A stretch of DNA of 64,000 bases from positions 51,299 to 115,298 of the forward strand of contig CAYHHA010000001.1 of NCBI GenBank assembly GCA_964356315.1, written 5' to 3'. Below are positions 21,367 through 41,954 of the stretch, piece after piece. This stretch comes from an uncultured Gammaproteobacteria bacterium (GTDB lineage: Bacteria > Patescibacteriota > Microgenomatia > UBA10105 > UBA927). Made by a program: the position numbers and the translations under genes. The notes below the pieces were generated by a model. It saw only the letters and a list, made by a program, of their open reading frames with translations. It was not told the origin of the DNA and searched no databases. Positions within the stretch are counted from its first letter, which is position 1. Each line of letters begins with the position of its first letter.

Positions 21367-22470
21367 ATGAACATACACATACTTCAAGAAAACTTGCTAA
21401 AAGCCTTGCTTCGAGCAGGGCGCATCGTGCCATCAAAACCCCAACTACCGATTATACAGAACGTTCTCCTGAATACTGAGAGCGGCAGGTTAAAGATCAC
21501 CGCTACAAACCTGGAAACCACAGAAACGGTTTTAGTAGGAGCGAAGATTATAGAAGAGGGCGGGATATGCGTCCCATCAAAGCTACTTAGTGAATACGCA
21601 TCATCTCTTCCACAGGGGACAGTTGAACTGTCTGTTAAGGAGGGATCTCTCCATATACAATGCTCTGGATATAAAGCAACAATTCCCGGAGTTCCCGCAA
21701 GCGAATATCCGCCAATCCCAGAGTCTAGTCAGAAGCAGGCGATCGAACTAGACAAAGAAACACTGGTGAAAAACTTAAACCGCGTGGTCTTTAGTGCAGC
21801 GACCGATGAGGGGCGCCCCGTGCTGACCGGAATACGGATTATAGAGAAGGATTCAGAGATAATATTTGCGGCGACCGATGGATACAGGCTTTCAGTGAAA
21901 AAACAGACCACAGACACATCTCAGGGCCTAGACCTACTTGTTCCCGCGCGAGCGATAACAGAGGTGTTAAAGATAGCGGTGGAAGAGAAAGAAGCAAAAC
22001 AAATACTGGTATCCAAGCAAAAGGATAACCAACTGCTATTTGTTATAGGGGACACAGAGATCCGAACCAGACTAATAGACGGAGACTATCCAAACTATGA
22101 GCGAATTATCCCAACAAAGTACAACACGAGGGTGTATTTTGAGAGGGAAGAGCTCCAGAGAGCAGTAAAATCAGCGAGTATTTTTGCCAGAGACAGCGCG
22201 AACATTATTCGCCTAGACATACAACCACAAGGAATTATGGTGAGTGCAAATACCCCTCAGGTGGGGGAGGACCAAATAGAAGTGGAAGCCAAGGTGGAAG
22301 GAGAGGGTGGGGAGATGGCGTTTAATAGCAGGTTCCTTTCAGATTTCTTGTCGAATGCACAAGAAGAAGAATTGCTTTTTGAGATGACCGGGTCGCTAAA
22401 CCCTGGGGTGTTTAGGTCAGCAAAAGACGAAACCTATCTCCATATAATTATGCCGGTGAGGGTGAGTTAA
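21367..22470 (+). CDS. dnaN: DNA polymerase III beta subunit (sliding clamp)
   Basis: 367 aa, three-domain clamp pattern; canonical position downstream of dnaA. Confidence 0.9.
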   Translation: MNIHILQENLLKALLRAGRIVPSKPQLPIIQNVLLNTESGRLKITATNLETTETVLVGAKIIEEGGICVPSKLLSEYASSLPQGTVELSVKEGSLHIQCSGYKATIPGVPASEYPPIPESSQKQAIELDKETLVKNLNRVVFSAATDEGRPVLTGIRIIEKDSEIIFAATDGYRLSVKKQTTDTSQGLDLLVPARAITEVLKIAVEEKEAKQILVSKQKDNQLLFVIGDTEIRTRLIDGDYPNYERIIPTKYNTRVYFEREELQRAVKSASIFARDSANIIRLDIQPQGIMVSANTPQVGEDQIEVEAKVEGEGGEMAFNSRFLSDFLSNAQEEELLFEMTGSLNPGVFRSAKDETYLHIIMPVRVS

Positions 22471-23510
22471 GGGGAGGCCCAAAGGAAATAAGAGGCTTCT
22501 TGCCTTGCTCCCCTGTTTGTAATTCCTTCCCCAGAGATGAAAAACGCGGGCAAATACAGGCCATTCTTAAGTGTGTAGAAAATTGACACAGACCTTATTG
22601 AAAAAGATTTAAAAGGAGGGTTTGGACCGCTACTCTCTAATCCCCCCGATTTAAGCGCGACAATAGACCCTCTCTGGGATTCTAAATTAAAAAGTAACTG
22701 TTCAGGCGTTAGTATCACCACGGACCCAAGTATAGCTATGGGTATCTTGGGAATAAAGATGGTAGCAGATCGAACGACACCAGAATTATCAGTGACAATA
22801 GAAGCGGAAAAATTATTAATGGAATTTGTGCTAAATGGATAATTGTTATACACAAAAGAAGCAGAGAAACCCGAGAACCTTTTGGGTTTAGGGGAGTCTA
22901 ATACAAGCAGGCCATCAAATTCTCCACCAGTCTCTTCAATATAGATACTGCTGTTCTCAAAAAGAGAAGAAAACAAATCAATAAAGCGCCTAGCTCCTAA
23001 CTCTGGGGACGATATCAACCCACCAGAAGATCGAATCCTCTGATATGTAATAGTTTGACTCTCTTTACTGGATGTTAAAATTAAAGAGAATGTGCTTGGG
23101 GAGCTCCATTTTGTTGTACGAATTGATCCTCTAATTATACTTGAGGGGGTCGCGGAGACACCAAGAGACTGAAGTATTTCTGGAATTGCAGAAACCAGAC
23201 TGTCGCCGTTAACAGATTCCCATGAGTAAGCAGGAAGCGTTTTTGGGAGAGTGGGAGTAGATATAAACGAAAACCTTGTTCCTGGGCTTTGTATAAAATA
23301 ACCAGTTGGAGCAAGAGGGACCAGTGGTTTACTCTCGACAACGGGAATGGCCGGCGTGGCTTCCTTTTTTTGATACGATAAAAAAACCGCAACAGAGATG
23401 GTGATAAACACAAATAATAGTAAAAAAATATGTCGTGTTTGCATATGTTTAACCACCCGTCGAAATAGGTTTTCCTGGGCAGTCGCCACAGCTGACATTG
23501 CACCCACCAA
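22467..23510 (-). CDS. Hypothetical secreted/membrane-anchored protein, first gene of the T4SS-like gene block
   Basis: N-terminal TM HIFLLLFVFITISVAVFLSY; Ser/Thr-rich extracellular region; no catalytic motifs. Confidence 0.35.
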   Translation of the reverse strand: MVGAMSAVATAQENLFRRVVKHMQTRHIFLLLFVFITISVAVFLSYQKKEATPAIPVVESKPLVPLAPTGYFIQSPGTRFSFISTPTLPKTLPAYSWESVNGDSLVSAIPEILQSLGVSATPSSIIRGSIRTTKWSSPSTFSLILTSSKESQTITYQRIRSSGGLISSPELGARRFIDLFSSLFENSSIYIEETGGEFDGLLVLDSPKPKRFSGFSASFVYNNYPFSTNSINNFSASIVTDNSGVVRSATIFIPKIPIAILGSVVILTPEQLLFNLESQRGSIVALKSGGLESSGPNPPFKSFSIRSVSIFYTLKNGLYLPAFFISGEGITNRGARQEASYFLWASP

Positions 23511-25740
23511 GACCTGGTGTTACGGGTAAAAGATTTAATACATTACCTCCAGATAATACCCCGAAATGTAGATGATCTCCAGAGGATGCTCCTGTTTGAT
23601 CCATGATGCCAACCTGAGAAGTTGGTGTGACTTGTATTCCTGGTTTGGCCGGGTCGACGTCTTGGATGTCTATAGCAGAAGAAAGGTGTCCAAAAATTAC
23701 CGTGTATGGGATTCCATCTTTATCGACCCCCGTTACCACCACGTGGTTTCCATATCCCTCGTAACCACTTTTACCACACAAGTTTTTCGGGTTTCCGGTA
23801 TTATCAACACAATCAGAGTGCACACTTGTTACAGTCCCAGTTAGCATAGCATATACAGGAACGCCCCCGCCCCCGGTTGCGATATCAATAGCGTTCTCGT
23901 CTGTTCCCCCACTATGCGAGCCACACGACGCTCTTGGTCCTTGGGTTATATAGCCAGATGTCGGCCAACGGCAATCACCAACACATGGAGTGTATGTGCA
24001 AACAGGATTCGATAATTTTACCGAAGGATCGTTACAATCAATAACACCTCCGCCTGTTTCAGATGACTCGCTACTCCCGCCTGTGCCCACTGAAAAAAAC
24101 TGTGCGGTTCTGGTCTCGTTCAATCTAAACGTTGAGAAAAATATCCAAATGAAAGTGGTTGATACAACCGCTAAAGCCCATATCCTAGCCTGTTTATCAG
24201 CTGGGCTTTCTGTATACGTGGCCCCGAGCATGTTTTGGACAATGCCTGTCACCGCCCCGCTCGCCGCCCGTATAGACACAATGCCCCCGTTTAAAAAACC
24301 AGAAAACGCAGACGCCCCAAACTTTTTAATTGTTCCAGAAAACGCAGATGCTGCCAGTATTGTCCACCCTACCACTGGCGCAAACCCCATTAGCTTTGAG
24401 CCCGCATTTATACCTAGTTTGAGTAGAGCTTCAGTTCCGACCCTTTTTGCCCCCGCACCCAAAACTCCCCGCTCTACCCCTCCCTTTCCTATGTTAAGCG
24501 CCCACGTGGATATGCCCGGATCAAAAGTAAAGTGGAATTCCTCGGGGCGTCTCCCAAACGCCACAGACTTAAACATTCCCTGTGCGCTTGGGGCTTGATT
24601 ACCTGTGATTGCTCCAATAAGATAATTTTGCCCCTCATGCATGATTCTTTCTCGATAATCTGAGGTTTCATCAATACTACTAGCCCAAGCTTTAACCTTT
24701 CCGCCATCTCTTTTTGTCGCTTCATTTTCTGCTTCTTTAAGAATATGGAGCACTTCGCTTTCTGATGCTACCCCTCCTGATTTTTCAACTATCTTTTGCG
24801 CGAGTTTGTCTTTATCCTTGGTAGCTGCAATGATTCTCGCTGAATATGCGTGGGAAATCACACCTTCTTTATTTGATCCTTGGTTGTATTCTGGATACGC
24901 TTGTTTTGCAGGAATGTTTTTAGTATCAGCAGGGGGTTTTCCTGCTATATATTGAATTCTTGACGCGGTAAGAGGATCACCAAAGTTTGATGGTCCAGAA
25001 AATGAGGCATCGATAAATGTGGTAACAAGCTCTGGGGGAGAGTCTGGATGCTCCAAGTACGCTTTTGTAGCTGCTCGTGTCTTTTGTTCTATGTCCCAAG
25101 CATTTTTCTGGAATTCTTTATCTTCAATAATTTTATACGCAAGCTCTCGAGCTTCTTCATTAAGGGCAGTTGATGCTTCTAGTCGCTGTCTGTATGCGTC
25201 ATAAACACCATCTAAGGTCTTGGATTTGGGTGATTTATTCAGTTCTTCAATAATAATCTCGTCCTGTGAACCTAGGGCTGATTGTCGCTGTTTCTTTATA
25301 AGCTCCTTACGATAGCCTTCCATATAAACGGATATATTATCCGTTTGTTTTTTAACCGCCTCTTGTCGTTTCTTTAAAAGAGATGATCGAAACTCTTCAG
25401 GCTGCATCGAAAACGAATTCGCTTCTGGTTTTCTGTCACTCAAAATCTTTATTGCGCTGGTTTGTTCATCCTCCGTGTGGGGGCTTGTTGGAGATTCTTT
25501 GCTTAAAAATGCGTACGGATTTTCAGCGATTTGAAGGGCAACCTCAATAGCTTTCTCTAAGTTGTCAGGGTCAAGTAGCGTGTCTGCAAGATCTATATTC
25601 TGGATAAAAAAAGCCTTTCCTTCTGTATAATGAAATAGGTTTGTTGCAAACCCAGAGGGGGAAATCTCCCCTTTGTTTAACCCCTCAACTGCGCCTGATA
25701 AGTATTGGCTGAGTGGTAATTCGTTATCAATAGTGCTCAT
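23449..25740 (-). CDS. Multidomain membrane protein with C-terminal M23 (LytM-type) peptidoglycan endopeptidase domain
   Basis: C-terminal GYGNHVVV...HLSS...DHLHFGV (HxH) and upstream H-x-D metal-ligand motif. Central Gly/Ala-rich TM segments; about 450-aa charged N-terminal domain. Confidence 0.7.
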   Translation of the reverse strand: MSTIDNELPLSQYLSGAVEGLNKGEISPSGFATNLFHYTEGKAFFIQNIDLADTLLDPDNLEKAIEVALQIAENPYAFLSKESPTSPHTEDEQTSAIKILSDRKPEANSFSMQPEEFRSSLLKKRQEAVKKQTDNISVYMEGYRKELIKKQRQSALGSQDEIIIEELNKSPKSKTLDGVYDAYRQRLEASTALNEEARELAYKIIEDKEFQKNAWDIEQKTRAATKAYLEHPDSPPELVTTFIDASFSGPSNFGDPLTASRIQYIAGKPPADTKNIPAKQAYPEYNQGSNKEGVISHAYSARIIAATKDKDKLAQKIVEKSGGVASESEVLHILKEAENEATKRDGGKVKAWASSIDETSDYRERIMHEGQNYLIGAITGNQAPSAQGMFKSVAFGRRPEEFHFTFDPGISTWALNIGKGGVERGVLGAGAKRVGTEALLKLGINAGSKLMGFAPVVGWTILAASAFSGTIKKFGASAFSGFLNGGIVSIRAASGAVTGIVQNMLGATYTESPADKQARIWALAVVSTTFIWIFFSTFRLNETRTAQFFSVGTGGSSESSETGGGVIDCNDPSVKLSNPVCTYTPCVGDCRWPTSGYITQGPRASCGSHSGGTDENAIDIATGGGGVPVYAMLTGTVTSVHSDCVDNTGNPKNLCGKSGYEGYGNHVVVTGVDKDGIPYTVIFGHLSSAIDIQDVDPAKPGIQVTPTSQVGIMDQTGASSGDHLHFGVLSGGNVLNLLPVTPGLGGCNVSCGDCPGKPISTGG

Positions 25741-25744: not shown

Positions 25745-27679
25745 TTATGGTGTGGTCTTTGTGTCTACGACAGTTTCTGTTGTAAATATTGGTCTGTTTG
25801 ACGGCTTAGGCTGTTGGGAGGGCGTCCCTGATTGTAGTACGGTCGTGCTGTTTTGAACAGGTTGGGGTTGAATCAGTTGCGAGGAGGCTAATTTTTGCGC
25901 CTCTAACTCTTGAGGTTTTGTGGTGATAAGAGCAGTTTCTTGTGGTGATGCTATTACTCTGATGGCGGCATGAGCGGGTCCCGCAAAAAATAACCCCTCT
26001 CCAACCCCTGCGGTCAAAAGGAAATGCCGCTCTCCTTCAGAGAGGAAAAACACCTCAGCTATCCTATCTATGGCCGCGGTTGACTGTTTTAGCAGTATTT
26101 GAAGCGAACTGTTTTGGATAATAGTTTTTCCAAGATCCACAGACATAAAATCTTCCACATCCTGCGTGATGGTGGTAAGACCAAGGTAGTATTTGCGCGC
26201 CCGCTTGGCTATAGAGTTTAAAAATGCCGCAGAATCAGGATACTTCATCATGTACCACGCTTCGTCAACGATGAGAATTCTCTTTTTTTTGCTTTGTCTC
26301 ACTTTTGTCCAGATAAAATCAAGGATCAAGTACATGGCGATCGGCCGGAGCTCGTCTTCAAGGTCCCGTATCGAAAACACCGTGAGTTGATTTCTGATTT
26401 CGAAATTTGTCTGATGGTCAAAGATGCCCACCAAGCTTCCTTTGACAAACTTCTCTATGCGATCGGAAAGCCCGCGAGCGACCACATCCTCCATGCCCAC
26501 AAGCGTTTTATATAAATCTTCCATAAGCGGAGGTTCTTTTGATTGAGTTTCTGGATCTGGGGTAATCCCCTTCATTTTATAGGTAAGGATAAGCGCTCGG
26601 TCCAGAAGCGCATCTTCCATAGGGGTTAGCTTTCCCATGACAACACGGAAAAACCCATGAAGAGATAATATTTTTTGGTTTAACTCGCTTTCTTCTTGTG
26701 TAGAGCCCTTTTGATGGAGGAGCGCTAGATCAAATGGATTGACCTTGGTGGTTGCGCCAAAGTGAAAGCGGATATATTCACCACCCAGTGCATGAGTAAG
26801 TGTTTCGTATTCATTTTCAGGATCAATGACGATGACTTCGGTGTCAAACATAAGACTCCGGAGGATCTCAAGCTTTACGAGAAACGACTTTCCCGCCCCG
26901 GATTTTCCAAACACCACCGTGTTGGCATTTTCCAGCGTAAACCGGTCAAAAATAACCAAGCTATCATTGTGTTGATTGATGCCATACAGGATTCCCTCAT
27001 TTGCCGTCAGCTCAGATGTGGTAAATGGGAACGTGGTGGCAAGCGATGTCGTGTCCATGTTGCGGGTAATAACCAACCTATCTTGACCCATCGGAAGCGT
27101 GGTCTTAAACCCTTCTTCCATTTGGAGTGTTGCGCGTTTTGTAACGATAAGGAGTGAAGAAAGAGTCGCCTCCACTTGTTTGCTTGCTTTGTTGAGGTCT
27201 TCAATGTCTTTCGCGGGTATGGTGACATAGAGTCCAAATTGGAAAAATCGCTGGGCGCCCTTTGCAAGTTCTTGTTGCAGGGAGAGCGCGTCTTCCAAGG
27301 CAACCTGAATAGACGGCTCTATGACACGACCCCGTTTCATATCTGACTGAATAGTCGCTTCCATCTCTCCAACTTTTCTCTTTAGGCTTTCGAGCACCTC
27401 TTCGCTTCTCGTGGGGTAAATATACATAGAAATATCCAGCGTGTGATTAAAGGAGATCAGTGGCTCTAGCCAGTTCGCACTGACGAAGCGCGGGTATCCA
27501 GAGATAAATAGCGTGCGGTAGTAAAAATTGCCAATTTTTAACAGGTCAAAATCCACCTCTATAGAGGGCGGGGCGATGAGATCATTTATGCTTATGGGAC
27601 CCGTTATTCTTAGAGGCGCTTCTAGCGCTTGTTGTGGCTTGGGGTTGATAAATTGTTGTAAGGACGATGTAAGTGTCAT
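25745..27679 (-). CDS. VirB4/TrbE/TraC-family type IV secretion ATPase
   Basis: Walker A VVFGKSGAGKSFLVK; Walker B ILIVDEAWYMM (the DEAW signature typical of VirB4); Pro/Gln/Thr-rich C-terminal tail. Confidence 0.7.
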   Translation of the reverse strand: MTLTSSLQQFINPKPQQALEAPLRITGPISINDLIAPPSIEVDFDLLKIGNFYYRTLFISGYPRFVSANWLEPLISFNHTLDISMYIYPTRSEEVLESLKRKVGEMEATIQSDMKRGRVIEPSIQVALEDALSLQQELAKGAQRFFQFGLYVTIPAKDIEDLNKASKQVEATLSSLLIVTKRATLQMEEGFKTTLPMGQDRLVITRNMDTTSLATTFPFTTSELTANEGILYGINQHNDSLVIFDRFTLENANTVVFGKSGAGKSFLVKLEILRSLMFDTEVIVIDPENEYETLTHALGGEYIRFHFGATTKVNPFDLALLHQKGSTQEESELNQKILSLHGFFRVVMGKLTPMEDALLDRALILTYKMKGITPDPETQSKEPPLMEDLYKTLVGMEDVVARGLSDRIEKFVKGSLVGIFDHQTNFEIRNQLTVFSIRDLEDELRPIAMYLILDFIWTKVRQSKKKRILIVDEAWYMMKYPDSAAFLNSIAKRARKYYLGLTTITQDVEDFMSVDLGKTIIQNSSLQILLKQSTAAIDRIAEVFFLSEGERHFLLTAGVGEGLFFAGPAHAAIRVIASPQETALITTKPQELEAQKLASSQLIQPQPVQNSTTVLQSGTPSQQPKPSNRPIFTTETVVDTKTTP

Positions 27680-28341
27680 GTTCTCGTATTTGTTAGTGCG
27701 TTTTTTATAGTCTCATCATCTGGCATCGGGACACCCGCGTTATAGGTGATAAATAACAATCTCACAAGCTGTTCATTGGTGAGTTGTCTGGCATTAAGCC
27801 CAAGTCTTATGAGCAGTCGAAGTACGTGGTCCCGTTTTGGATTGAGCGCTGCGAGTGCCTTTTCAAAAATATACTCTTTTTTAAATGGAAGCCCCCGTTT
27901 TTTGCTACCAAAAAACATGCCCATAGATGCGCCAAGTTCTAGGCTGGAAAAGGGGATGATAATATAGAATTTTTTATCGAGCACATCTTTCTCTTTGACC
28001 GTCGCTGCAACAAAAATTCTATAGTCATGTATGCTTTTTGATAATTTTGGATTTGTCTGCTTTCTTTCCTGATCTTCCAGTAGCCGGAGATATGCGGTGA
28101 CGTCTTTGTGTTGTGTTCTGATAAGAAGTTCGATAGGAAACGAAAGAGAATTGAGTAGGCCTGCGTACGCCGTGATGATAGAATCTTGCTCTTTCTCAGA
28201 AAGCAGTCCAAAGTTTACTGCAGAGGCAGTAATAACAAGGGAGCATGACCCATCTGTATAGAGAATGATGTTTTGTTCTATGGTCTCTATTTCTGTAAAT
28301 ATCTGAGTTGTCGATTTAATTGGTATTATTGTTTCCGCCAT
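27676..28341 (-). CDS. Hypothetical cytoplasmic protein, translationally coupled to virB4-like gene (start set at MAETIIPIK)
   Basis: The ORF-track N-terminus (FMVHGSWFMVHGSW) is a translation of the (ATGAACC)7 array, so the start was moved to ATG at 28339-28341. 4-nt overlap with the downstream ATPase gene. Confidence 0.4.
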   Translation of the reverse strand: MAETIIPIKSTTQIFTEIETIEQNIILYTDGSCSLVITASAVNFGLLSEKEQDSIITAYAGLLNSLSFPIELLIRTQHKDVTAYLRLLEDQERKQTNPKLSKSIHDYRIFVAATVKEKDVLDKKFYIIIPFSSLELGASMGMFFGSKKRGLPFKKEYIFEKALAALNPKRDHVLRLLIRLGLNARQLTNEQLVRLLFITYNAGVPMPDDETIKNALTNTRT

Positions 28342-28357
28342 ATTCCCATCCTTTTCT

Positions 28358-28406
28358 ATGAACCATGAACCATGAACCATGAACCATGAACCATGAACCA
28401 TGAACC
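28358..28406. repeat. Perfect (ATGAACC)x7 heptanucleotide tandem array
   Basis: Read directly: atgaacc repeated seven times, 28358-28406, between two minus-strand T4SS-locus genes. Confidence 0.95.
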
Positions 28407-28411
28407 CCGCG

Positions 28412-29872
28412 CTATGTTCTGTTTCCAAACAACTCTTTTGTCAGCTGGTCTCTCGTGATTTGCTTTTGACTTTTTGTGATAATTTCTAGAGCTGGGACAA
28501 TTGATCCGTTTAGGGTCACCTGAACTCTGTCAAATGTGTAGCGTTGCCTCGGGTCTTCTATCTCAACAAAATACACACCGTTTGAAAGTGGGGTGGAAGC
28601 GGCAAATTGTCCAAGCCGATTTGTTTTGAGCGCTCGTACAGGTATACCTTCTTTGTCTTTCACTGTTACGAGAACGCCTGGTAGAAAATTATTATCGCTA
28701 TCTTTGGTGATTCCGGTGACGACGTTTGGAAATGTGGTAAGCCTTGGGAGCCCTGCTGTTACCGCTCCCTCCGGTGTGATAATTTTTACCGTTGGTTGTT
28801 TTTGTGACTGAAGCGGGATGGTTGGTTTTGGGACTTCAGGTTTCGCAATCGGTGGGAGTGGTGGGATTGGCGCCTGTGTGGTTATCTGCTGTATTGGCGC
28901 AGCCGCCTGTCTTGTGGATGTGGCTTGAATCTGCTGTTGTAATTTCGCCATCTCTCGTCCCATTTGGTCTTTTTGCTCTAACACTTCTGTGAGTTGTTTT
29001 TGTAGTTCCAGTATCCGAGATTCGGCAATAGATTTATTTTCTAGTTCGTGGGTGAGAGTAGAGAGTTTTTCTTCGAGTATTTCTTCCCTTTTTACTACCT
29101 CCTGAATCTTTTGTCTTTCTGGGTCGGGAGGTTTGACGACGGGTGGCATAGAGAGATCCAGCCTGGTTCCGACAATCGATGGGGTCTTGACGACCGGCGC
29201 CTGACTGGGTGTTGCGGGAGCAATGCGTGGTGCGATGGTTGGTTGCGGGCCTTTTATCGCAAAGAGCGAAAAAAACCAATCAAATAAACCAAGTTTCTTG
29301 GCCGGTGCGGGCTGCGAGAAACCGCGTTGGATTGGTTGTGTTTGGGGTAGAGTGGTTTGTTGGCGCGGGGCGTACATATTTGTTATGACGCTTGTCGTTG
29401 TTTTTTGCGGGGCGGATTGTGGCGCCACGCTTGTTCTGCTTTGTTGTGTTGGTTGGGCTTGTTGAGTCACCAAAGTTGGTATTTTTTGTGCGACCGGGAT
29501 AGTCTGATGTGTTGGGGCGAGGTATTGGCTTGCTCTCGCCTCGGTGAATACTGGGTTTTGAAGAGGCGGAGCTGCCTTTTTTTCTACTGATTTTTCCCAC
29601 ACATAGAGCGTGGGATTGTAAATGTTTTTTATAAAGGATAATGCCCACACGTCCATTGGTCTGTCCTCTATTGGAACAAAAGCAAATCCGACTCCACCCA
29701 AGGCAAATATGGTGGTAAGTGGCCACGTGAAGAAAAACGGCAACGGAAGCTTATACGATATATATGCGAGGATTAATCCACCCGCGAGGTATCCAAACTG
29801 CTTTATGGTCATGTCGCCTATAAGGCGGAACTGAAATGTTGTAACATTTTGCGGGACAGGATGTTGCTCCAT
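28412..29872 (-). CDS. T4SS-associated membrane protein: VirB3-like two-TM N-terminus, Pro/Gln-rich linker, coiled coil, C-terminal beta domain
   Basis: Two N-terminal TM helices (FGYLAGGLILAYISY, PLTTIFALGGVGFAFV). Long P/Q/T-rich low-complexity region, heptad-like ELQKQLTEVLEQKDQMGREMAKLQQQIQ, and a C-terminal carboxypeptidase-regulatory-like beta sandwich (GVLVTVKDKEGIPV...). Confidence 0.4.
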   Translation of the reverse strand: MEQHPVPQNVTTFQFRLIGDMTIKQFGYLAGGLILAYISYKLPLPFFFTWPLTTIFALGGVGFAFVPIEDRPMDVWALSFIKNIYNPTLYVWEKSVEKKAAPPLQNPVFTEARASQYLAPTHQTIPVAQKIPTLVTQQAQPTQQSRTSVAPQSAPQKTTTSVITNMYAPRQQTTLPQTQPIQRGFSQPAPAKKLGLFDWFFSLFAIKGPQPTIAPRIAPATPSQAPVVKTPSIVGTRLDLSMPPVVKPPDPERQKIQEVVKREEILEEKLSTLTHELENKSIAESRILELQKQLTEVLEQKDQMGREMAKLQQQIQATSTRQAAAPIQQITTQAPIPPLPPIAKPEVPKPTIPLQSQKQPTVKIITPEGAVTAGLPRLTTFPNVVTGITKDSDNNFLPGVLVTVKDKEGIPVRALKTNRLGQFAASTPLSNGVYFVEIEDPRQRYTFDRVQVTLNGSIVPALEIITKSQKQITRDQLTKELFGNRT

Positions 29873-34082: not shown

Positions 34083-37000
34083 ATGAATGAAATAGATAAG
34101 GGGCCATGGAGATTTTTCAAAGATCTAATAAATAAAATACGTAAAGAGCCTATTAAACCACCTGAAAAACCGGTGTATAAGAAAGTAGCCGAGATACGCC
34201 CGCGGAATCGTCCAGAAAGAGTCCTCAAAAAGGCTGACACAGAAAATCTTCAAAAAAAAGAGGTTTCAAAAAAGATAGATAATATTGGTAGGCCACCCTC
34301 CCCAAAAGAAGCTATTGATATATTAAGCGACGCTACAGCGTCAAGCACAGTTGAAGGAGCAAGGCTCGTGTTGGGTCTCCAGCAACTTAAATCTGTTGAT
34401 TGGTCAGCTGTTGACAAGAAAGCAGAATGGCAAAAAATCAACACTGCAATTCTCGGATTGCCTAAAACAGAGTCTCTTACAAGCGCGGATGATATTTTCC
34501 TAAGACAAGCTGCGGAAAAATATGCATCTGTATTTTATTATCAAAATGTTGCAGAAATTGCGGCGGTTCCTGGTTCCGTTGATTGGGTGGGCCCACATAA
34601 AGATTTTGCCGAAGCTCATGCAAGGGATTTGACAGAGCGTACCGCACAGATACAGCGAGCTGAATCTGAAGGTGTAAGCGCACAAAACATTTTGAAAGAC
34701 CTGGATGATGGCCATAAAGATAATCCTCAAACTGTTGAAGAGATAGGTAAGCTTGCCTGGCCCCCCAAACAATACACAGCGGATGATGGATCTAGGCGTA
34801 TTGGAGCGCTATTGGGGGCTTCGGATTATGCCGATTGGATACAAACTGCAGCAGGAAAAACTGATAATCCGCAGGTGATTTCGTTTCTTGTAAACTTGGC
34901 GGAATCTGGCCCAGATGCATTAAAGGATCCAAAATTTTTGTTCACAAAGGCAGTGCAGTTTCGAGAAAAATTAATAAAACCAATGTCGTCAGATGCTGCC
35001 TCTCGTGGCGGTCTTGATTCAATACTTCAGGACATGACAAATCAGATTCAGAAATGTGTTAAAGATGGTGCTCCTTTGTTTGAAAAAATTGGTCCAAACG
35101 AGAAAATGGGACAAATTATTGGCAAGTTTCCGGTGGTAGATTTAGAAACAAAATCAAAAATAGATACGAGCAAATGGTTTGTTAAAGATTCTGGTGGAAA
35201 AGTACACTTTTATGATGATACCACAGGTAAGATAGATGTGCCTGCAGGGTCGCCTATCGCGGATCAGTTGAACGGCTTGGCTGAAGAATTTAATCGGTTA
35301 CAGAACCAAATTAATTCAGAGCCAGAGTCTCTGGTCCAAGGTAATTTGAATCTAAGGGGCACCCGAGAAAAATTGGATAGTATTATGTATGAAATTCGAG
35401 CTAAAGGAGGGGTTGTTCCAGGCATGGCGGTTGAAAAATATCAAGAATTACTGGGCCTGGAGATTGGGTTATATGATCACGGACATGATTACACTGGCTT
35501 AGGCCTTGATGAGCAGTGGAAGGTTGCCGTGCGAGAAAAGGGATTCACGGCTGTAGTAGAAGAGCAAATGCGAATTATTGAAAAGAATACAAGATCTCAT
35601 GAGGGGGATATGTATCAAGGTCAGGCGGCCGCACAAACAATGCAGTATCTGTTTGGATGGTCACAGTATCCTGGGTATATCAATGAATGGACGATTGAAT
35701 TGTCCCGAAAAGGTCTAAATAACGAGCAAATTGCAAAACGATTAAAAGAGATTCTTGACGAGCGAGATATGGCCTCAAAAATCATAAACGCTCGCAAGCA
35801 GCTATTAAGCGCCACCACGCTCTATCATGCTGCTGGGATTCCGTCTGAAAAAATGCCTCAAGTCATGTCTCCAATAGGAGATGAGGGACCACAATTTTTA
35901 TTGACCATCAATGATGGAAGAATTGCAAAAATTCGCGATTTTCTCGATGAATATTATAACAGTGGACAATTCGTGGAAGGTACAGATGATACGCGTCGAT
36001 ATTATGCCCAGACATTTGAAAAACTTAGTAAGGATATGGAGCAGGATCTTGAATATGCAAGTGACTTATTTGGGCTTACACCTGGTCAGATTGAAGAAGC
36101 AGCTTTTCTTGCTGATGAGCTTGCGACTATCACCGACCGAAAAGTAGTGATGATTGGAAAAGGAAAAGCACCTCAAGAGGACAATGTTCACCATATGTAT
36201 TTAGGTGGTGACAGAGCAGAGGAATATGCCTCTGATAGAGAATTCGGCAGGTTTAAGTTTTTCCGTTGGGCATTTTTAGACAACGTGGCTATCCATATGT
36301 ATGAATCTTCAAGTTACTTTGTAGCAAAAATGAGGGGTGCAGAAAAGGTGATAAGCGCGCGCATCGCTGAGGCAAGTAGCCGTCCGGGAGGTAAAGAAGA
36401 GCTGGTAAAAGAATTGTGTTTTATCACAGAGCGTCATATGAGTCTGCCAGAGCCAGACCGAATCAAGACTATAGAAGATCATTTGAAAACACAATTTCGT
36501 AGTAAAGACATGAGAGCAAATAAGAGAACAAAGAATGTTCTTTGGGCAAAGAAAATACCAAAAACGCTTGAAGAAGCGGCGAAGGATGAAAAATGGTTAA
36601 AAGAGCGTATGATGATTCAAGTGGGTTCCAAACAATATGATCGAAGTTTGATGTCTTATACATACTACGACTCCGGGCCCATGGTGTCTGAGGTCTTGGG
36701 GCAGATTCGGGAAATGTTTGAGCCTAATATTGCAGACACGCTTGGGATTAATATGAGCGTCAGAGATGCGTATGCTAATCTCCTTGGAGCAAAAGATCAT
36801 AGTGCAAAGCATCACGCTGAACATGCTCTTAAGCATGAGTTGCAACGGGCTGCAAAATATAATCCTTTAGAGCTCTTCCGAGCTCATGTAGCCCACCACG
36901 ATTTTTATACAAAAGACTGGTTTTCGGGTCTTGATAAAAATATAATGAATGCATTTTTATCAGATAAAGAGATGGCTAAAGGCATACAGAGCTCAGGTGA

Positions 37001-38033
37001 TCTGGTGAAAGCGCTAGGCAAACGACTGATAGCGATAGATACACTCGTTAAAGACGAGGTAAAACAGAATAAATTTATAGCCAGAATTGACTGGAGTAAA
37101 GATTTATCCGCAGAGCATTCGTCCATTGTAAGAAGAGTTCTTCAATCTTTCTCTGGCGCTTCAGGTGGAGGGGATTTGGAAATTGGGTATGAAGAATTTA
37201 CGGGTCTCATGCAAGATATTTCAACACAAGTGGTGGGACAGGACTATTCAATTCACCGCATGATGGATATCGATTACTGGGACTATGGGTATCAGACAGA
37301 ATCTGTGCATGATAGCTGGTTGGATCTACTTGAACAGCCAGATAAGTATGGAAATAAGACGGGTCACACTGATCTTATAAAATTATCACACAGGCTGGGT
37401 GCAAAAAATGGATACGGATCAGGGTCTTTGCTGGTTCGAAATCATGGAGATAAAGAACCGGCAAGAAAGTGTGGTGATTTGATGCTTCAGTTTTATACAA
37501 AAGGCATGGATCAAAAATCACTCATGGAAGCGATTAAAGAAATTGCATTTCAAGATCGTATGGTTTATGGGTCTCCTTGGGACAAACGATCTGTAATCTA
37601 CTTGCTTTCGGGACTATTAGATCAAGCAGCTGTAGACTCAGGATCTGAATGGACATTTGGGACTCTTGATTTTTTTGCACCTAAAAATTCGCCACTTCGA
37701 AGATTGCTAAATGAAAAAGCTGAGGGGTGGACTATACATGACCGATATGAATTCGTGGAAATTATGGAAAATCAAATCCGATCTAATCTTCATGAGATTG
37801 ACCACGAAATGGCAGATGGATTTTTGCAATATGTGAAAATAAATATGAGTCTCCCTGGTTTTAATAAAATAGCAAACGGTAATGTGTGGAAGAAACGCAT
37901 GTATACTGTCGGCGCTATCGCAGCTGTTTCAGGTGCAATTGCGCTAGGAGGTGTGTTTTTAAGCGAGGCAAAAGTAACTTCTCCTGGGTCAGGCGGTGGT
38001 GGCGGGGATGAACATGTGCCACAACATCATTAG
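34083..38033 (+). CDS. Giant (1316 aa) acidic hypothetical protein with C-terminal TM anchor and poly-Gly tail; T4SS-locus cargo or structural component
   Basis: No recognisable domain. Single C-terminal TM (VGAIAAVSGAIALGGVFL) followed by SPGSGGGGGDEH; convergent with the VirB6-like gene. Confidence 0.5.
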   Translation: MNEIDKGPWRFFKDLINKIRKEPIKPPEKPVYKKVAEIRPRNRPERVLKKADTENLQKKEVSKKIDNIGRPPSPKEAIDILSDATASSTVEGARLVLGLQQLKSVDWSAVDKKAEWQKINTAILGLPKTESLTSADDIFLRQAAEKYASVFYYQNVAEIAAVPGSVDWVGPHKDFAEAHARDLTERTAQIQRAESEGVSAQNILKDLDDGHKDNPQTVEEIGKLAWPPKQYTADDGSRRIGALLGASDYADWIQTAAGKTDNPQVISFLVNLAESGPDALKDPKFLFTKAVQFREKLIKPMSSDAASRGGLDSILQDMTNQIQKCVKDGAPLFEKIGPNEKMGQIIGKFPVVDLETKSKIDTSKWFVKDSGGKVHFYDDTTGKIDVPAGSPIADQLNGLAEEFNRLQNQINSEPESLVQGNLNLRGTREKLDSIMYEIRAKGGVVPGMAVEKYQELLGLEIGLYDHGHDYTGLGLDEQWKVAVREKGFTAVVEEQMRIIEKNTRSHEGDMYQGQAAAQTMQYLFGWSQYPGYINEWTIELSRKGLNNEQIAKRLKEILDERDMASKIINARKQLLSATTLYHAAGIPSEKMPQVMSPIGDEGPQFLLTINDGRIAKIRDFLDEYYNSGQFVEGTDDTRRYYAQTFEKLSKDMEQDLEYASDLFGLTPGQIEEAAFLADELATITDRKVVMIGKGKAPQEDNVHHMYLGGDRAEEYASDREFGRFKFFRWAFLDNVAIHMYESSSYFVAKMRGAEKVISARIAEASSRPGGKEELVKELCFITERHMSLPEPDRIKTIEDHLKTQFRSKDMRANKRTKNVLWAKKIPKTLEEAAKDEKWLKERMMIQVGSKQYDRSLMSYTYYDSGPMVSEVLGQIREMFEPNIADTLGINMSVRDAYANLLGAKDHSAKHHAEHALKHELQRAAKYNPLELFRAHVAHHDFYTKDWFSGLDKNIMNAFLSDKEMAKGIQSSGDLVKALGKRLIAIDTLVKDEVKQNKFIARIDWSKDLSAEHSSIVRRVLQSFSGASGGGDLEIGYEEFTGLMQDISTQVVGQDYSIHRMMDIDYWDYGYQTESVHDSWLDLLEQPDKYGNKTGHTDLIKLSHRLGAKNGYGSGSLLVRNHGDKEPARKCGDLMLQFYTKGMDQKSLMEAIKEIAFQDRMVYGSPWDKRSVIYLLSGLLDQAAVDSGSEWTFGTLDFFAPKNSPLRRLLNEKAEGWTIHDRYEFVEIMENQIRSNLHEIDHEMADGFLQYVKINMSLPGFNKIANGNVWKKRMYTVGAIAAVSGAIALGGVFLSEAKVTSPGSGGGGGDEHVPQHH

Positions 38034-38050: not shown

Positions 38051-39586
38051 TTATTCGTGATCAACTCCTGGCGGTGGTTTCCCAGCTCCAAGCATTTGAG
38101 GAGCCGCTTTCTCTCCCTTGATGTGCTTCATATAGTATATAAGGGAAGATATTTGAGATCCATAAGAGAGTGCACTTGCCAATGCTCCACCACCTCCACC
38201 TCCAGCTCCTGCGAACGCAGGCTTTGCCTTCAGCGCTTCTTTTACCGATCCAGCTACTGTTGGGATGGCAAAAAGAACACCAAGGGATACAAGTGATGCT
38301 ATTTGTGCCATATCTCCTGAGACTGGTGCATAGGGCGGTGTCCATAGTTTTCCTGCGGAGGCGTTGTTGGAAAAATGGGTAAACACATTTGCAAGCATAA
38401 ACATCCCGGCTCCGATGGGGAACACAGCTAGATTAGAGATCAGATTATTAAACCACGAAGAAAATGCAGTGCTCCCTGGTATGGCCTCCATCATAAGTTG
38501 AAGTGGCGCAAGAAGGAGCGAAAGGATAATTTGAATATAAGACATAAGGAAAAATGCCACAAGGCGAACAAACAGGAAAATAATCGCAACAGTAAGGATA
38601 ACATGAATTATAGGAATGCTTAGGCTTGCTATTCCAACTGGAGCTGCGATTAGTGCGGCCCCTGGCACTGTTGCTAATGCAAGAGCGAAAATAATTCCCC
38701 CAACAGAGAGGTATTTTGCCGTGGCCTGCGCTACAGCATTCGTCCCAAAAAGTATTTTATCTACATCCCAAGAGAGGTTGAAGAAATTTTGCATCAATCC
38801 GCCCTGTCCATAAAGCTGTTCAGGTGTTTTAAATCCTTGAGAGAGTGCAACCCCCTGAGGAGCGTCAAGTAGCGTTGTCGACTTGAATAGCGCAATCAAA
38901 ATATAGATAATCACATACATAAAATCGATCAAAATACCTACAATGGCATAAGAAAATGTGATGAGGATAAGCGCTAGGACAACTTTAGGGATAGCATTTT
39001 GTGCGGTGACGACCGTATGAGGGTCAATTTTTTTCCGGAACATGATCATAAAACCAAGTACAATCATGACAATTGCCATCAGTAAGTATGCGACGTTTCG
39101 AAATGCTTTCCAGACAGGCAAGAGGGGAGCCATGCCAGAAAAACCAATGCCCTGGCCTTGTGCAAACGCCTGTTGGGGTATAAATCCGAGCGTGCGACCT
39201 GTGTCTGCAATCCAGAGTCCTGTATCTGCGGGTCTTTGTGTAAATGTTAAAGCCACAACGTCATTTAATTTCCCAAATGCGCTGTTTTGTATATATGTTT
39301 GCATATCTGCTGGATTGTCTGTGCAGTCAAAGCCAACTCCTAAGCATGACAGTGAATATAATCCATAAATATTGCTTGAGTGTACAGATGATTCCGAATT
39401 CATGGGTGTACCTTGTAGAGCTTTGCCAAATTGGGAAGGAGGCGGAAATTTCCAGGACTCTGCAGCGTGTACAGTGACAGTCAAAGAAAAACAGAGTGCT
39501 ATGCCAGCTAGGTAGAGTGATATGGTGTGTAAATATCTCTTCATGCTTCCTCTATTATTGAGTAATTGTGTTATGGCGTCAATCAT
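38051..39586 (-). CDS. VirB6/TrbL-like polytopic inner-membrane protein (putative T4SS channel component)
   Basis: Signal peptide (LYLAGIALCFSLTVTVHA), about 120-aa periplasmic segment, then six or more TM helices and a Gly-rich tail; directly upstream of the pilin gene array. Confidence 0.4.
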   Translation of the reverse strand: MIDAITQLLNNRGSMKRYLHTISLYLAGIALCFSLTVTVHAAESWKFPPPSQFGKALQGTPMNSESSVHSSNIYGLYSLSCLGVGFDCTDNPADMQTYIQNSAFGKLNDVVALTFTQRPADTGLWIADTGRTLGFIPQQAFAQGQGIGFSGMAPLLPVWKAFRNVAYLLMAIVMIVLGFMIMFRKKIDPHTVVTAQNAIPKVVLALILITFSYAIVGILIDFMYVIIYILIALFKSTTLLDAPQGVALSQGFKTPEQLYGQGGLMQNFFNLSWDVDKILFGTNAVAQATAKYLSVGGIIFALALATVPGAALIAAPVGIASLSIPIIHVILTVAIIFLFVRLVAFFLMSYIQIILSLLLAPLQLMMEAIPGSTAFSSWFNNLISNLAVFPIGAGMFMLANVFTHFSNNASAGKLWTPPYAPVSGDMAQIASLVSLGVLFAIPTVAGSVKEALKAKPAFAGAGGGGGGALASALSYGSQISSLIYYMKHIKGEKAAPQMLGAGKPPPGVDHE

Positions 39587-39969
39587 GGTGATTGCAAGAT
39601 ATTAAATTTTGTTATGGTGTCTGTTGTCCCCGTGAATGATCCAATCACCCGGAGGATCAGATATGCGCTCACAATGACGACGAGTCCGATAATGGCATTG
39701 GTTAACGTTCCCTTGGCTTGTTCGAGCTTTTTTTGATCTCCTTGGGAAAAAAGAAACGAAAACCCACTAACGATGAACATGAGAAATAATGCTACAGCCC
39801 CAAGGGAAATGGCTGTTTTCACAAAATTTCGAAACAAATTTTCGAGCGACCCGATGGTTGCGACATCTGTTCCTTCGTATGTAGTTAGGGTTTCAGCTAT
39901 GGCATAGGGAGCAAGTCGTAGAGACATAATCCCGAGGGCTATATAGCTTGCAATTCTCTTTGCAGTCAT
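39583..39969 (-). CDS. TrbC/VirB2-like T4SS pilin paralog 1
   Basis: Signal/TM, then FSQGDQKKLEQAKGTLTNAIIGLVVIVSAYLIL: the shared pilin motif (x-GD-x-K-x3-A-x3-I-x2-A-x-IGL + second TM). Confidence 0.6.
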   Translation of the reverse strand: MTAKRIASYIALGIMSLRLAPYAIAETLTTYEGTDVATIGSLENLFRNFVKTAISLGAVALFLMFIVSGFSFLFSQGDQKKLEQAKGTLTNAIIGLVVIVSAYLILRVIGSFTGTTDTITKFNILQSP

Positions 39970-40092
39970 AGGTATATTGTAGCACGTACACTCTGGGATT
40001 ATGAATAATGAGCTGAAACTATTTAGGAATACTTACGTACACATCATGATATTTCCATGATTCATTCTTCATGATTCCCGATTCAGATTGTT

Positions 40093-40422
40093 TTAATAAG
40101 GCTTTGGGAAGTTTACTGCTCCACCGATGATGGTGACACCCAGGAAGTTCTGGATAAGGAGCATGACCGCCCATGCTGCGCCGACGATGATAAGTCCGAC
40201 GATGGCATGCGTGATTTTATTTCGGGCCGCTTCCATGCCTGCTTTGTCTCCACCTGAGGTGATCCATTGGATTCCTCCGAGTATGAGAAAGAAAAACGCA
40301 AGAAGTGCTGCGATAATAAGGAGTGTGCCAACGAGTGCACTAATAAGCTGGCCTATGTCGTTTATTTTCATGTTTGTCGGTTGGCCAATTGTGATTTGTG
40401 GATCTGCTGCAAATACTTTCAT
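40093..40422 (-). CDS. TrbC/VirB2-like T4SS pilin paralog 2
   Basis: ITSGGDKAGMEAARNKITHAIVGLIIVGAAW. Confidence 0.6.
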   Translation of the reverse strand: MKVFAADPQITIGQPTNMKINDIGQLISALVGTLLIIAALLAFFFLILGGIQWITSGGDKAGMEAARNKITHAIVGLIIVGAAWAVMLLIQNFLGVTIIGGAVNFPKPY

Positions 40423-40501
40423 ACGTTCCTCCTATTTTATATATCTATATTATATCCTATTTCTTATTGTTGCGCAAAAAGATAGAGACTGTCAATGCCA
40501 T

Positions 40502-40849
40502 TTATCGTCCAACCGTTGGAATTTGGAGGCTTTTGAGATCGAGACCGAAGAAGCCAGCGACCAACGTTGTCAGTGCAAACGAAGCGCCTACAATGATGAT
40601 ACCGATAATTGCATTAGTGATATTGTCTCGTGCCGCCTCTAGCTTCGTCTTATCTCCTCCAGCGCTAATCCATGATATGCCACCTGTAATCAGGTAAACG
40701 AATGCCAATAAAAATCCTGCAATAAATAGTGCTCCAACAAGACTGCTGATAAGTGACCCCAATGCTTTTCCGCCCTCTTGATAATTCCCGCCACCAATAG
40801 CGCGGGGGAGGATAGGGTTGGTAAGTGCTGCAAGAAATTTTTGGTGCAT
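40502..40849 (-). CDS. TrbC/VirB2-like T4SS pilin paralog 3
   Basis: ISAGGDKTKLEAARDNITNAIIGIIIVGASF. Confidence 0.6.
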   Translation of the reverse strand: MHQKFLAALTNPILPRAIGGGNYQEGGKALGSLISSLVGALFIAGFLLAFVYLITGGISWISAGGDKTKLEAARDNITNAIIGIIIVGASFALTTLVAGFFGLDLKSLQIPTVGR

Positions 40850-40850
40850 A

Positions 40851-41240
40851 TTATTTTAATTTGAATAATTCGTTTGTCGCCGGTCCTAACAATATATCGT
40901 ATCCGAAAAATTGTCCCGCCACAGCCAAAAGGCTCCATGATCCGATGACAATGACAAGGCCGACAAACGCATGAGTGATGCGGTCTCTGGCTGATGCAAT
41001 TTTTTTGGCATCTCCTCCAGCGCTGATCCACTCGTATCCTGCGAACAACAGCATGAATAAAAACCAAATGCTGGCAAATACGGTCAGCATGCCAACGATA
41101 TCGCTCACGTAATTTGTAATCGTTTCGACAGGATTGCTTATCGCTTTTCCCGCGAATGGTCCCAGTTCTCCGCCGTTTCCCTCTCCGATTGTTCCCAGAG
41201 ATTGTCCTAACGCTACTGATTTAGCAAGAAGTGTTGTCAT
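40851..41240 (-). CDS. TrbC/VirB2-like T4SS pilin paralog 4
   Basis: ISAGGDAKKIASARDRITHAFVGLVIVIGSW. Confidence 0.6.
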   Translation of the reverse strand: MTTLLAKSVALGQSLGTIGEGNGGELGPFAGKAISNPVETITNYVSDIVGMLTVFASIWFLFMLLFAGYEWISAGGDAKKIASARDRITHAFVGLVIVIGSWSLLAVAGQFFGYDILLGPATNELFKLK

Positions 41241-41241
41241 A

Positions 41242-41607
41242 TTAGTTTGGACCGTATATTGACGGGCTTAGGATGGCGCTTGGGCTACCAAAGAATACTT
41301 GACCCATCAGAGCGGCGATTGCAAAAGACCCCACAATCAACACAAGTCCGAGAAGTGATTGGTAGATCCTGTCCCATGCCGCGGATACTGACTTAGAATC
41401 ACCACCAGCGTTCATATACTGGAATCCTGCAATGATAAAGTTGAAAAACGCAAAAATCCCCGCAACCACAAACACCAGTCTTAAAATATTACTGAGAAAT
41501 AGGATAAGCCCGCCCCCTGCGCCTGCTGCTCCAATAATATTTTTATATTGTGCCGGTAGCGGGTTTGTGACCGTTCCGATAATATCGTCTGCGTAAACTT
41601 TAAACAT
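41242..41607 (-). CDS. TrbC/VirB2-like T4SS pilin paralog 5 (start set at internal Met to avoid overlap)
   Basis: MNAGGDSKSVSAAWDRIYQSLLGLVLIVGSF; the ORF-track N-terminal 30 aa overlap the next gene. Confidence 0.5.
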   Translation of the reverse strand: MFKVYADDIIGTVTNPLPAQYKNIIGAAGAGGGLILFLSNILRLVFVVAGIFAFFNFIIAGFQYMNAGGDSKSVSAAWDRIYQSLLGLVLIVGSFAIAALMGQVFFGSPSAILSPSIYGPN

Positions 41608-41618
41608 ATAATTAGCAT

Positions 41619-41954
41619 CTACCTCGGTAAAATACAAAGTGTATTTACACAATCTCCCTTTAAACCTGTTAGGGTCTCTATAATCTGAATGATCCAAAAC
41701 GATCCGAGTACAACGATAAGACCTATGACTGCGCCGGTAATTGCCTTTTTCCCCGACTCCATTTTTTTCGTATCTCCGGATCCTGCAGCTTGTATCATAC
41801 CAAATCCAGCGAAAACTAACAAAAGAAACGCGATAACACCTGCGAGCATAAAAGCATTTGGCACGATCACCGACACCAAATCACCTAGGTTGGTAAACTT
41901 TGTTATAGAGGGAAATTCAGTTCCAATATTCACAGCTGCAAATACGCGTTCCAT
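41619..41954 (-). CDS. TrbC/VirB2-like T4SS pilin paralog 6
   Basis: IQAAGSGDTKKMESGKKAITGAVIGLIVVLGSF. Confidence 0.55.
   Translation of the reverse strand: MERVFAAVNIGTEFPSITKFTNLGDLVSVIVPNAFMLAGVIAFLLLVFAGFGMIQAAGSGDTKKMESGKKAITGAVIGLIVVLGSFWIIQIIETLTGLKGDCVNTLCILPR

Follow-up and report, generated by a model that had tools for sequence, protein, structure and literature searches.

Quinonero-Coronel et al. 2025 (PMC12102498) described a type IV secretion system (T4SS) across 3,035 Patescibacteria genomes and found that its VirB4 proteins form a monophyletic clade nested in the monoderm MPF-FATA type. In these genomes TrsD and PrgI adjoin virB4, VirB6 is scarce and divergent in Microgenomatia, the hydrolases include Peptidase_M23, and relaxases are almost absent. 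VirB2-like pilins occur in 441 arrays of 2–11 genes with a mean identity of about 25%, most commonly in Microgenomatia and Saccharimonadia; in Paceibacteria and Microgenomatia the neighbours are most often dnaA/dnaN, and only 148 of 5,713 patescibacterial type IV coupling proteins (T4CPs) lie near virB4. For Southlakia, transposon sequencing (Tn-seq) by Wang et al. 2023 (PMC10633639) demonstrated that the cluster SEML1_0006-0019, which adjoins dnaA/dnaN/recF and includes no relaxase, is essential for epibiotic growth. It encodes a lysozyme, an unknown 1113-aa protein, VirB4, a 293-aa protein, PrgI, an unknown 998-aa protein, an NTF2-like protein, an extended VirB6 and six pilins. The main points on the Patescibacteria T4SS are restated in a 2025 review (PMC12857230). 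The first cultured member of Microgenomatia, OT8, lives as an obligate ectoparasite and takes up host RNA; tubular structures appear to penetrate its host, and according to the authors these may be T4SS pili (bioRxiv 10.64898/2026.06.21.733656, June 2026). Here we analysed a 64-kb stretch of contig CAYHHA010000001.1 (in the following, the window), in which a listing of open reading frames (ORFs) together with Pfam and NCBIfam scans revealed a T4SS/pilus gene cluster at 22.5–42 kb that adjoins dnaA and dnaN. The genome is that of an ultra-small Candidatus Gottesmanbacteria (candidate phyla radiation, CPR; class Microgenomatia), and the cluster is located near its replication origin.

The identity of the cluster as a Patescibacteria-type T4SS is secure. 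It is a well-preserved new example of the published system and no new kind, because a system with pilin arrays, dnaA proximity, M23 hydrolases and lack of relaxases was published in 2023 and 2025. A reading of this DNA from its letters alone (the sequence-only reading) had pointed out that this kind of system is reported in CPR episymbionts, which is borne out by PMC10633639 and PMC12102498, and every gene that it named is present in the ORF listing at the coordinates it gave. Its view that the components are essentially uncharacterised was overstated, as the system, the pilin arrays, the origin-proximal site and the lack of a relaxase are described in the same two studies. Taking all data together, we hold it to be highly probable that the locus is a vertically inherited, origin-proximal T4SS of the Patescibacteria type, which is derived from monoderm (MPF-FATA) conjugation machinery and serves transfer in contact with a host, not conjugation.

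The conserved core and its genomic setting

The gene for VirB4 (25745–27679, minus strand) encodes a protein with the Walker A motif GKSGAGKS and the Walker B motif DEAW. It scored 395 bits against NCBIfam conju_CD1110 (cut-off 325), covering profile positions 184–730 only, and matched Pfam P-loop_TraG (2e-25); the best PDB sequence match was VirB4 of 4AG5 (1e-45), and TrwK was matched at 1e-7. The score above the conju_CD1110 cut-off and the match to 4AG5 bear out the VirB4-type ATPase with a DEAW Walker B proposed before. The matches suggest a VirB4 of the monoderm (MPF-FATA) kind that has no usual N-terminal domain; identity values and matches to hidden Markov models (HMMs) place it putatively in the Patescibacteria clade.

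A component that was absent from the earlier list of genes is found immediately upstream of VirB4, an arrangement present in 78 related loci. The ORF spans 27676–28428 (minus strand) and its likely true start is at 28341, giving a TrsD-like protein of 221 aa (27676–28341). It showed weak, sub-threshold matches to positions 101–233 of VirB4_plasma and to TrsD/TraD, and for its orthologue in locus L083 a precomputed match to PF26593 (TraC-like) is available. TrsD has already been described in Patescibacteria (PMC12102498). The TrsD-like protein appears to be the equivalent of a split-off N-terminal domain of VirB4.

The next gene (28412–29872, minus strand) encodes a PrgI/VirB3-like fusion protein. 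Residues 5–83 match Pfam PrgI with 30.5 bits (cut-off 27) and are followed by a stretch rich in Pro and Gln, a heptad-like (coiled-coil-like) stretch and a weak match to the beta-sandwich family CarboxypepD_reg (21.3 bits, under the cut-off). This architecture is kept in 78 loci at 40–66% identity. A VirB3-like protein with a Pro-rich/coiled-coil/beta extension, as suggested by the sequence-only reading, is thus confirmed, the beta part corresponding to the CarboxypepD_reg match below the cut-off.

The second ATPase (30041–32227, plus strand) matched TrwB_AAD_bind (31.9 bits, cut-off 20.5), TraG-D_C (25 bits, cut-off 22) and DUF87 (41 bits, above the cut-off). Its best PDB matches were TrwB and DotL, both covering only the Walker A region (residues 332–385). 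These scores above the family cut-offs and PDB matches agree with the proposed VirD4/TraG-like P-loop ATPase, and we refer to the protein as the T4CP. Neither ATPase had a T2SE/PilB match in Pfam or NCBIfam, and FtsK and HerA were not among the PDB matches. Matches to DUF87/HerA were secondary to those with T4SS families, and the PDB matches comprised VirB4 and T4CPs only, so that the two ATPases are not of the FtsK/HerA or PilB type.

To compare related loci, one genome per species was scanned for relatives of VirB4, of which 229 were obtained, and the best 80 loci were used. In these 80 loci VirB4 is 59–88% identical to the window protein, and they belong overwhelmingly to Candidatus Gottesmanbacteria and other Microgenomates metagenome-assembled genomes (MAGs). 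As found by tblastn with every window protein, the gene order pilins–VirB6–giant–NadD–T4CP–PrgI–TrsD–VirB4–hydrolase–p347–dnaN–dnaA is kept across related loci, where "giant" stands for a protein of 1316 aa and p347 for a bitopic protein of 325 aa. In the window, dnaA (19784–21151, plus strand; Pfam Bac_DnaA, 217 bits) and dnaN (21367–22470, plus strand; three Pfam DNA_pol3_beta domains) border the cluster, and both neighbours are likewise present at 62 related loci. The synteny comparison, which the sequence-only reading had put forward as a check, thus showed that the locus is kept beside dnaA/dnaN across Gottesmanbacteria. The minimum of the cumulative GC skew is at 18–20 kb, beside dnaA. 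At 0.44–0.47, the T4SS region equals the 40 kb after it in GC content, and the part with lower GC is a glycosyltransferase cluster upstream. Because of the conserved order, the GC-skew minimum beside dnaA and the GC content like that of the following 40 kb, we conclude that the locus is chromosomal, origin-proximal and vertically inherited, and is not an integrated or conjugative element. In the course of this comparison we noted that L001, L002, L004-L008 and many more MAG records labelled "uncultured Gammaproteobacteria bacterium" hold a Gottesmanbacteria-type dnaA–T4SS locus with VirB4 75–88% identical; the labels of these third-party-annotated MAG records are evidently wrong.

The locus shares many features with the Patescibacteria-clade T4SS of Southlakia: a monoderm-type VirB4 with adjacent TrsD-like and PrgI/VirB3 proteins, a peptidoglycan hydrolase encoded directly after VirB4, six PF18895 pilins that follow VirB6 (here a candidate), large all-alpha proteins in the cluster, the lack of a relaxase and the position beside dnaA/dnaN. 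Unlike in most T4SSs of this clade, the VirD4-like ATPase is encoded only two genes from virB4. Further differences from Southlakia are that the hydrolase is of the M23 and not of the lysozyme-like type, that the VirB6 candidate has only about 500 aa and no extension, that an NTF2-like protein was not recognised, and that the giant gene is convergent with VirB6 and its family was detected only in Gottesmanbacteria-type loci. Like the monoderm conjugative systems (MPF-FATA: C. difficile CTn CD1110, pCF10 Prg, pGO1 Trs, pIP501 Tra), the locus encodes PrgI, TrsD, a cell-wall hydrolase and a T4CP, its VirB4 scores above the CD1110 equivalog threshold, and outer-membrane core components are absent. 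In contrast to those systems the locus has no relaxase/oriT and no LPXTG adhesin and is chromosomal and vertically inherited, and it encodes VirB2-like pilins, which according to the literature are lacking in Gram-positive systems.

Fast-evolving proteins and a fixed set of pilins

To see how the individual components evolve, global identities were calculated between the window proteins and the orthologues at the same positions in L002, which is the closest of the loci whose flanks are complete. High values were obtained for T4CP (91%), dnaA (90%), VirB4 (87%), TrsD (82%) and dnaN (76%), and PrgI was 66% identical. The hydrolase reached 32%, the 325-aa protein 26% and the giant protein 24%. 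Two layers emerge from the comparison of loci: VirB4, TrsD, T4CP and the second pilin belong to a slow core, whereas three proteins, namely hydrolase, bitopic protein and giant, evolve very fast.

The giant protein is encoded at 34083–38033 (plus strand) and had been considered an orphan. This view is refuted: an exhaustive HMMER search of 1.84 billion representative proteins returned 19 sequences at E <= 1e-3 including the query, thus 18 relatives, and positional homologues are present in at least 22 loci. The closest relatives are 34–38% identical and 1354–1428 aa long, and nearly all Gottesmanbacteria genomes have an ORF of 1000–1420 aa in the slot of the giant. With a family profile built from the HMMER hits, the proteins in this slot were recognised in 22 loci, at E values between 1e-135 and 5e-6. 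Two distant family members (P0007 and P0008) were located by exact-sequence look-up in the same slot and context in L082 and L083. When built from the three closest slot proteins, an HMM gave 79.8 bits on the window protein with filters off, versus 7.2 bits for the best of 200 shuffles. Word-index searches with the protein and with the family alignment returned the query alone; phmmer and a broad 24-member family HMM at default filters found nothing, the broad HMM giving 16.7 bits with filters off.

Members of this family share a basic/Pro-rich N-terminus and a conserved core (approximately residues 470–1180 of the window protein). They also have a hydrophobic helix near the C-terminus, after which comes an acidic/Gly-rich tail; most tails terminate in H or HH, that of the window protein in HH. 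An N-terminal hydrophobic signal-like segment was not found in a scan limited to hydropathy, and no member had a Pfam or PDB sequence match; for the window protein NCBIfam gave none either. An AlphaFold (AF2) model of residues 117–1316, based on a 17-sequence alignment, is all-alpha with a mean pLDDT of 70.6 (85–95 in the core) and did not match any known fold. By alignments and model, the giant protein is a member of a fast-evolving, locus-specific all-alpha family that always holds the slot beside VirB6.

The hydrolase gene (23449–25740, minus strand) encodes 763 aa. Peptidase_M23 was found at the C-terminus (residues 616–736; 34.4 bits, Pfam cut-off 28.7), an HLH motif is visible, and a single transmembrane (TM) segment is predicted at residues 520–538, in agreement with the M23 endopeptidase with its own membrane anchor that had been proposed. 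In the same slot of related loci, 29 of 45 proteins have an M23 domain, three of 45 a CHAP domain and a few others different peptidase-like domains. This suggests that the slot keeps its function while the domains are swapped. The M23 protein is a functional analogue of VirB1.

The p347 ORF covers 22467–23510 (minus strand), and the most likely start is Met23 (position 23444), which gives the 325-aa bitopic protein (22467–23444). Hydropathy predicts one TM helix at the N-terminus, with roughly 300 residues after it. The protein matches no known family: no Pfam, NCBIfam or PDB sequence match was obtained, profile searches of Pfam and PDB included, and a word-index homology search found the query alone. 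An HMM built from 28 positional homologues scored 152 bits on it versus 7.3 bits for the best shuffle, and the alignment begins at Met23. By its position it is a candidate for a VirB8/TcpC-like role.

Six tandem pilin genes are located at 39583–41954 on the minus strand: 39583–39969, 40093–40422, 40502–40849, 40851–41240, 41242–41607 and 41619–41954, scoring 47, 36, 33, 32, 24 and 31.5 bits against PF18895 (cut-off 26.6 bits). The most likely start of the fifth is at 41607; therefore, it does not overlap with the sixth. Two further pilins are encoded apart from the array at 51695–52507 (51695–52039 and 52043–52507, minus strand; 32.4 and 33.7 bits). Seven of the eight are above the cut-off, the exception being the fifth of the array with 24.1 bits, and in an alignment all eight have the two-helix layout and the loop motif GGD-x-K...A...I...A-x-x-G-L in common. 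The array of six and the additional pair at 51.7–52.5 kb noted in the sequence-only reading are thereby confirmed.

The paralogues in the window are 18–45% identical to each other. When the array was compared to that of the distant locus L082, one-to-one collinear best matches were obtained with 66, 80, 51, 45, 65 and 52% identity by position, while the giant protein of L082 is only 26% identical to that of the window. The order beside VirB6 also holds for partial arrays (L009, L010, L042 and L043), and the most conserved pilin is 40093–40422. The collinear one-to-one orthologues with 45–80% identity in a distant genome suggest that the six pilins are an old, fixed set of specialised subunits. 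Considering these values against the 18–45% identity among the paralogues, antigenic variation of the pilins, which had been brought up, is unlikely. Diverged virB2 genes in tandem and a non-conjugative T4SS for host interaction are also features of Bartonella, Anaplasma and Rickettsia (discussed in PMC12102498); unlike in those arrays, each paralogue has an ordered orthologue in a distant genome here, which argues against a variable antigenic repertoire. An AlphaFold (AF2) model of the 40093–40422 pilin is a helical hairpin (pLDDT 74.7).

A gene for an ECF-type (extracytoplasmic function) sigma-70 factor (42045–42596) is divergent from the pilin array, and an ECF sigma gene is also found beside the array of L082; the factor may regulate the pilins. 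The two unlinked pilins adjoin a SpoIID-like (peptidoglycan-cleaving) gene at 52633–54381 (SpoIID, 49 bits). The region 51695–57171 further encodes a bPH_2 protein, a small membrane protein with DUF5657 and a 616-aa protein of no named family, and may be a second envelope module.

The gene for the VirB6 candidate has the pilin array on one side and the giant gene on the other, an arrangement found in 41 loci. The full ORF spans 38051–39586 (minus strand); starting from Met15 (38051–39544) the protein has 497 aa and about 6–7 TM segments as predicted by hydropathy.

Repeats and neighbouring genes

Tandem arrays of a heptanucleotide are present in intergenic spacers at 28358–28406, 32227–32283, 32634–32719, 43584–43676, 45882–45961, 47514–47536, 50956–50986, 51433–51464 and 52695–52734; three of them are perfect and the rest degenerate. 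(ATGAACC)7 is located between PrgI and TrsD and its reverse complement (ATGGTTC)8 begins at the stop codon of T4CP, so that a 49-nt perfectly complementary inverted pair brackets PrgI and T4CP. Only seven such arrays were found in 1.4 Mb of the 80 related loci, none of them at the PrgI–TrsD or T4CP-downstream junctions. Because of this rarity in related loci, the arrays look specific to this genome. A function as phase-variation switches or an invertible PrgI–T4CP segment is unsupported: no inverted arrangement was seen in relatives, and in-frame ATGs occur in every third unit.

Several genes between T4CP and the giant gene lie outside the secretion machine. A gene for a four-helix-bundle protein similar to 23S-rRNA-IVP/Avd (32227–32640, plus strand; likely start at about 32293) has inverted heptamer arrays on both sides (32227–32719). 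It is sporadic at this site in relatives (L007, L017), while L082 has three such genes in or beside its pilin array, and it looks like a small insertion cassette. A diversity-generating retroelement, as the Avd-like gene might have indicated, was rejected because the window holds no reverse transcriptase. A NadD-like nucleotidyltransferase follows (32714–33274, plus strand), and a Phd/ParE toxin–antitoxin pair (33317–33816, plus strand) is inserted between it and the giant gene, at the same place as in L003 and L007.

Directly upstream of dnaA, positions 1–19650 are taken up by a polysaccharide cluster with genes for glycosyltransferases, Wzy and asparagine synthase (GC 0.35–0.40). A Wzy-like neighbour of dnaA is kept in relatives, yet at only 24–42% identity. 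On the other side of the locus, 43683–51691 harbours a complete mevalonate-pathway operon (HMG-CoA reductase, an HMG-CoA synthase-like protein, thiolase with an OB-fold partner, two GHMP kinases, one of them fused to NUDIX, and diphosphomevalonate decarboxylase) followed by undecaprenyl-diphosphate synthase. SmpB and a tmRNA gene (Rfam 97.9 bits; missed by ARAGORN) are encoded at 57200–58235, and a GIY-YIG nuclease-like small ORF together with a ComFC-like gene (double zinc ribbon plus phosphoribosyltransferase) at 58356–59278. A scan for promoters and terminators gave sites no more numerous than in shuffled sequences and was not used.

Possible function of the system

Most likely the cluster encodes a pilus-bearing envelope channel for the interaction of the epibiont with its host. 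The hydrolase would open the peptidoglycan, and VirB3, VirB4, TrsD and VirB6 would make up the membrane channel. VirB4 would then pull pilins from the membrane and build a heteromeric pilus-like tube, with the most conserved pilin (40093–40422) as the likely major subunit. This tube would contact or penetrate the host cell that bears the epibiont, and macromolecules could pass through it, either effectors that are picked by the coupling ATPase and move out, or host material, RNA or DNA for example, moving in. We read the split between core and periphery as one between the machine and parts that face the host or are delivered to it; the giant protein, the hydrolase and the 325-aa protein would then track host specificity. 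The sequence-only reading had favoured attachment or DNA uptake over conjugation: a non-conjugative appearance is supported by our data, and attachment and DNA uptake are two among several possible functions.

Several points weigh against this interpretation. The hypervariability of the three peripheral proteins could equally be explained by relaxed constraint instead of adaptation to hosts. For the VirB6 candidate no Pfam match and, by sequence or profile, no PDB match was found; weak TrbL/VirB6 matches were seen in two of 17 homologues (best E 0.013) and none for the window protein, so that of the proposed label "VirB6-like" the polytopic topology and the position stand, and the family match is limited to these weak TrbL hits. 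For the pilin model the top PDB match, 8dfu (the conjugation/Ced pilus of Aeropyrum pernix; probability 0.91, TM-score 0.69), is statistically non-significant (E 1.4), which is to be expected of a fold this simple. The T4CP scored 38 bits against the NCBIfam equivalog conju_CD1115, which has a cut-off of 250, and a hydropathy scan showed no TM or hydrophobic segment, membrane anchors thus being absent. In Southlakia the T4CP homologue is encoded far from virB4 and is non-essential (PMC12102498), or none was recognisable (PMC10633639). Whichever applies, the coupling ATPase is tied to the machine only by its adjacency, which was seen in at least 38 loci.

An integrative conjugative element that has decayed or been domesticated, yet still moves DNA between cells with the help of an unrecognised relaxase, would fit a VirB4 that passes the cut-off of the conjugative-transposon family CD1110 and the presence of a T4CP, and the authors of PMC12102498 leave room for very different relaxases. 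We regard such an element as very improbable. No relaxase, integrase, recombinase or reverse transcriptase domain was found in any Pfam-scanned ORF of the window, which also has no tRNA and no flanking direct repeat beyond matches of chance length. The locus has the same dnaA/dnaN-adjoining position across many species, its GC content equals that of the surrounding 40 kb, and the identity gradient tracks that of dnaA. Within the window, the earlier statement that a relaxase or integrase is not visible and that the locus is chromosomal beside dnaA/dnaN is therefore upheld, att-like repeats being absent as well.

The direction of transport can be viewed in two ways. The linked coupling ATPase and the giant protein, signal-less and with a conserved tail, hint at export; the observations on OT8 and the weak similarities to Ced hint at import. 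According to the literature, the inability to make their own nucleotides is the norm in the phylum Patescibacteria, and it is presumed for this organism. A machine for the import of nucleic acids, like ComB of H. pylori or Ced of archaea, could draw host DNA or RNA through the pilus as food. The best structural match of the pilin model is the Ced pilus 8dfu, and weak NCBIfam matches connect VirB4 to CedB (54 bits) and the T4CP to the DNA-translocating ATPase CedD (35 bits), but all these matches are far under the family cut-offs or, for the fold, non-significant, and gene content and lineage differ from Ced. The cultured OT8 acquires host RNA while tube-like structures enter its host (bioRxiv 10.64898/2026.06.21.733656), and T4SS-mediated uptake was proposed for Saccharibacteria in the literature; coupling ATPases, however, are known as receptors for export, and the locus encodes no nuclease, DNA-binding protein or ComEC-like channel, the ComFC-like gene 17 kb off being the only competence-type gene found. 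Import in this sense seems possible but rather unlikely to us. Alternatively, the T4CP could recruit the giant protein, which lacks a Sec signal, by its C-terminal tail and deliver it as effector or adhesin to the surface, the pilus tip or the host. The lack of a signal-like segment in the family, as judged by hydropathy only, the common C-terminal helix and acidic/Gly-rich tail ending in HH, an evolution far faster than that of the core, the consistent adjacency of the T4CP and the fact that the protein is always found in a T4SS locus, distant relatives included, all point in this direction, as do the all-alpha proteins of the Southlakia cluster, which are about 1000 aa long and essential. 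Yet the C-terminal helix could be a tail anchor by which a cytoplasmic scaffold stays at the membrane, neither fold nor domains point to an adhesin or enzyme, and the T4CP is non-essential in Southlakia (PMC12102498). Such export, too, seems possible but rather unlikely to us.

A channel for epibiont–host interaction, whether exporting or importing, is our preferred reading. A more far-reaching proposal, which we judge unlikely and offer as speculation, is that the giant proteins are an undescribed T4SS-dedicated family with a new all-alpha fold and without Sec signal, and would be a translocated substrate or host-specificity determinant that is recognised by the T4CP via the tail and diversifies with the host, while the six pilins form a fixed heteromeric pilus. 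If true, the giant protein would be the first candidate cargo or specificity factor of a secretion system essential for CPR epibiosis.

It is modestly new that the giant proteins form a family, and a hypervariable one, that core and periphery are split, that the six pilins have one-to-one orthologues, and that a T4CP is consistently linked in this clade. The locus is a clean Gottesmanbacteria example in which the coupling ATPase is linked, and the comparison argues that multi-pilin arrays are fixed subunit sets. In the sole species tested, epibiotic growth depends on the Patescibacteria T4SS, and the split between core and periphery gives candidates for host specificity or cargo.

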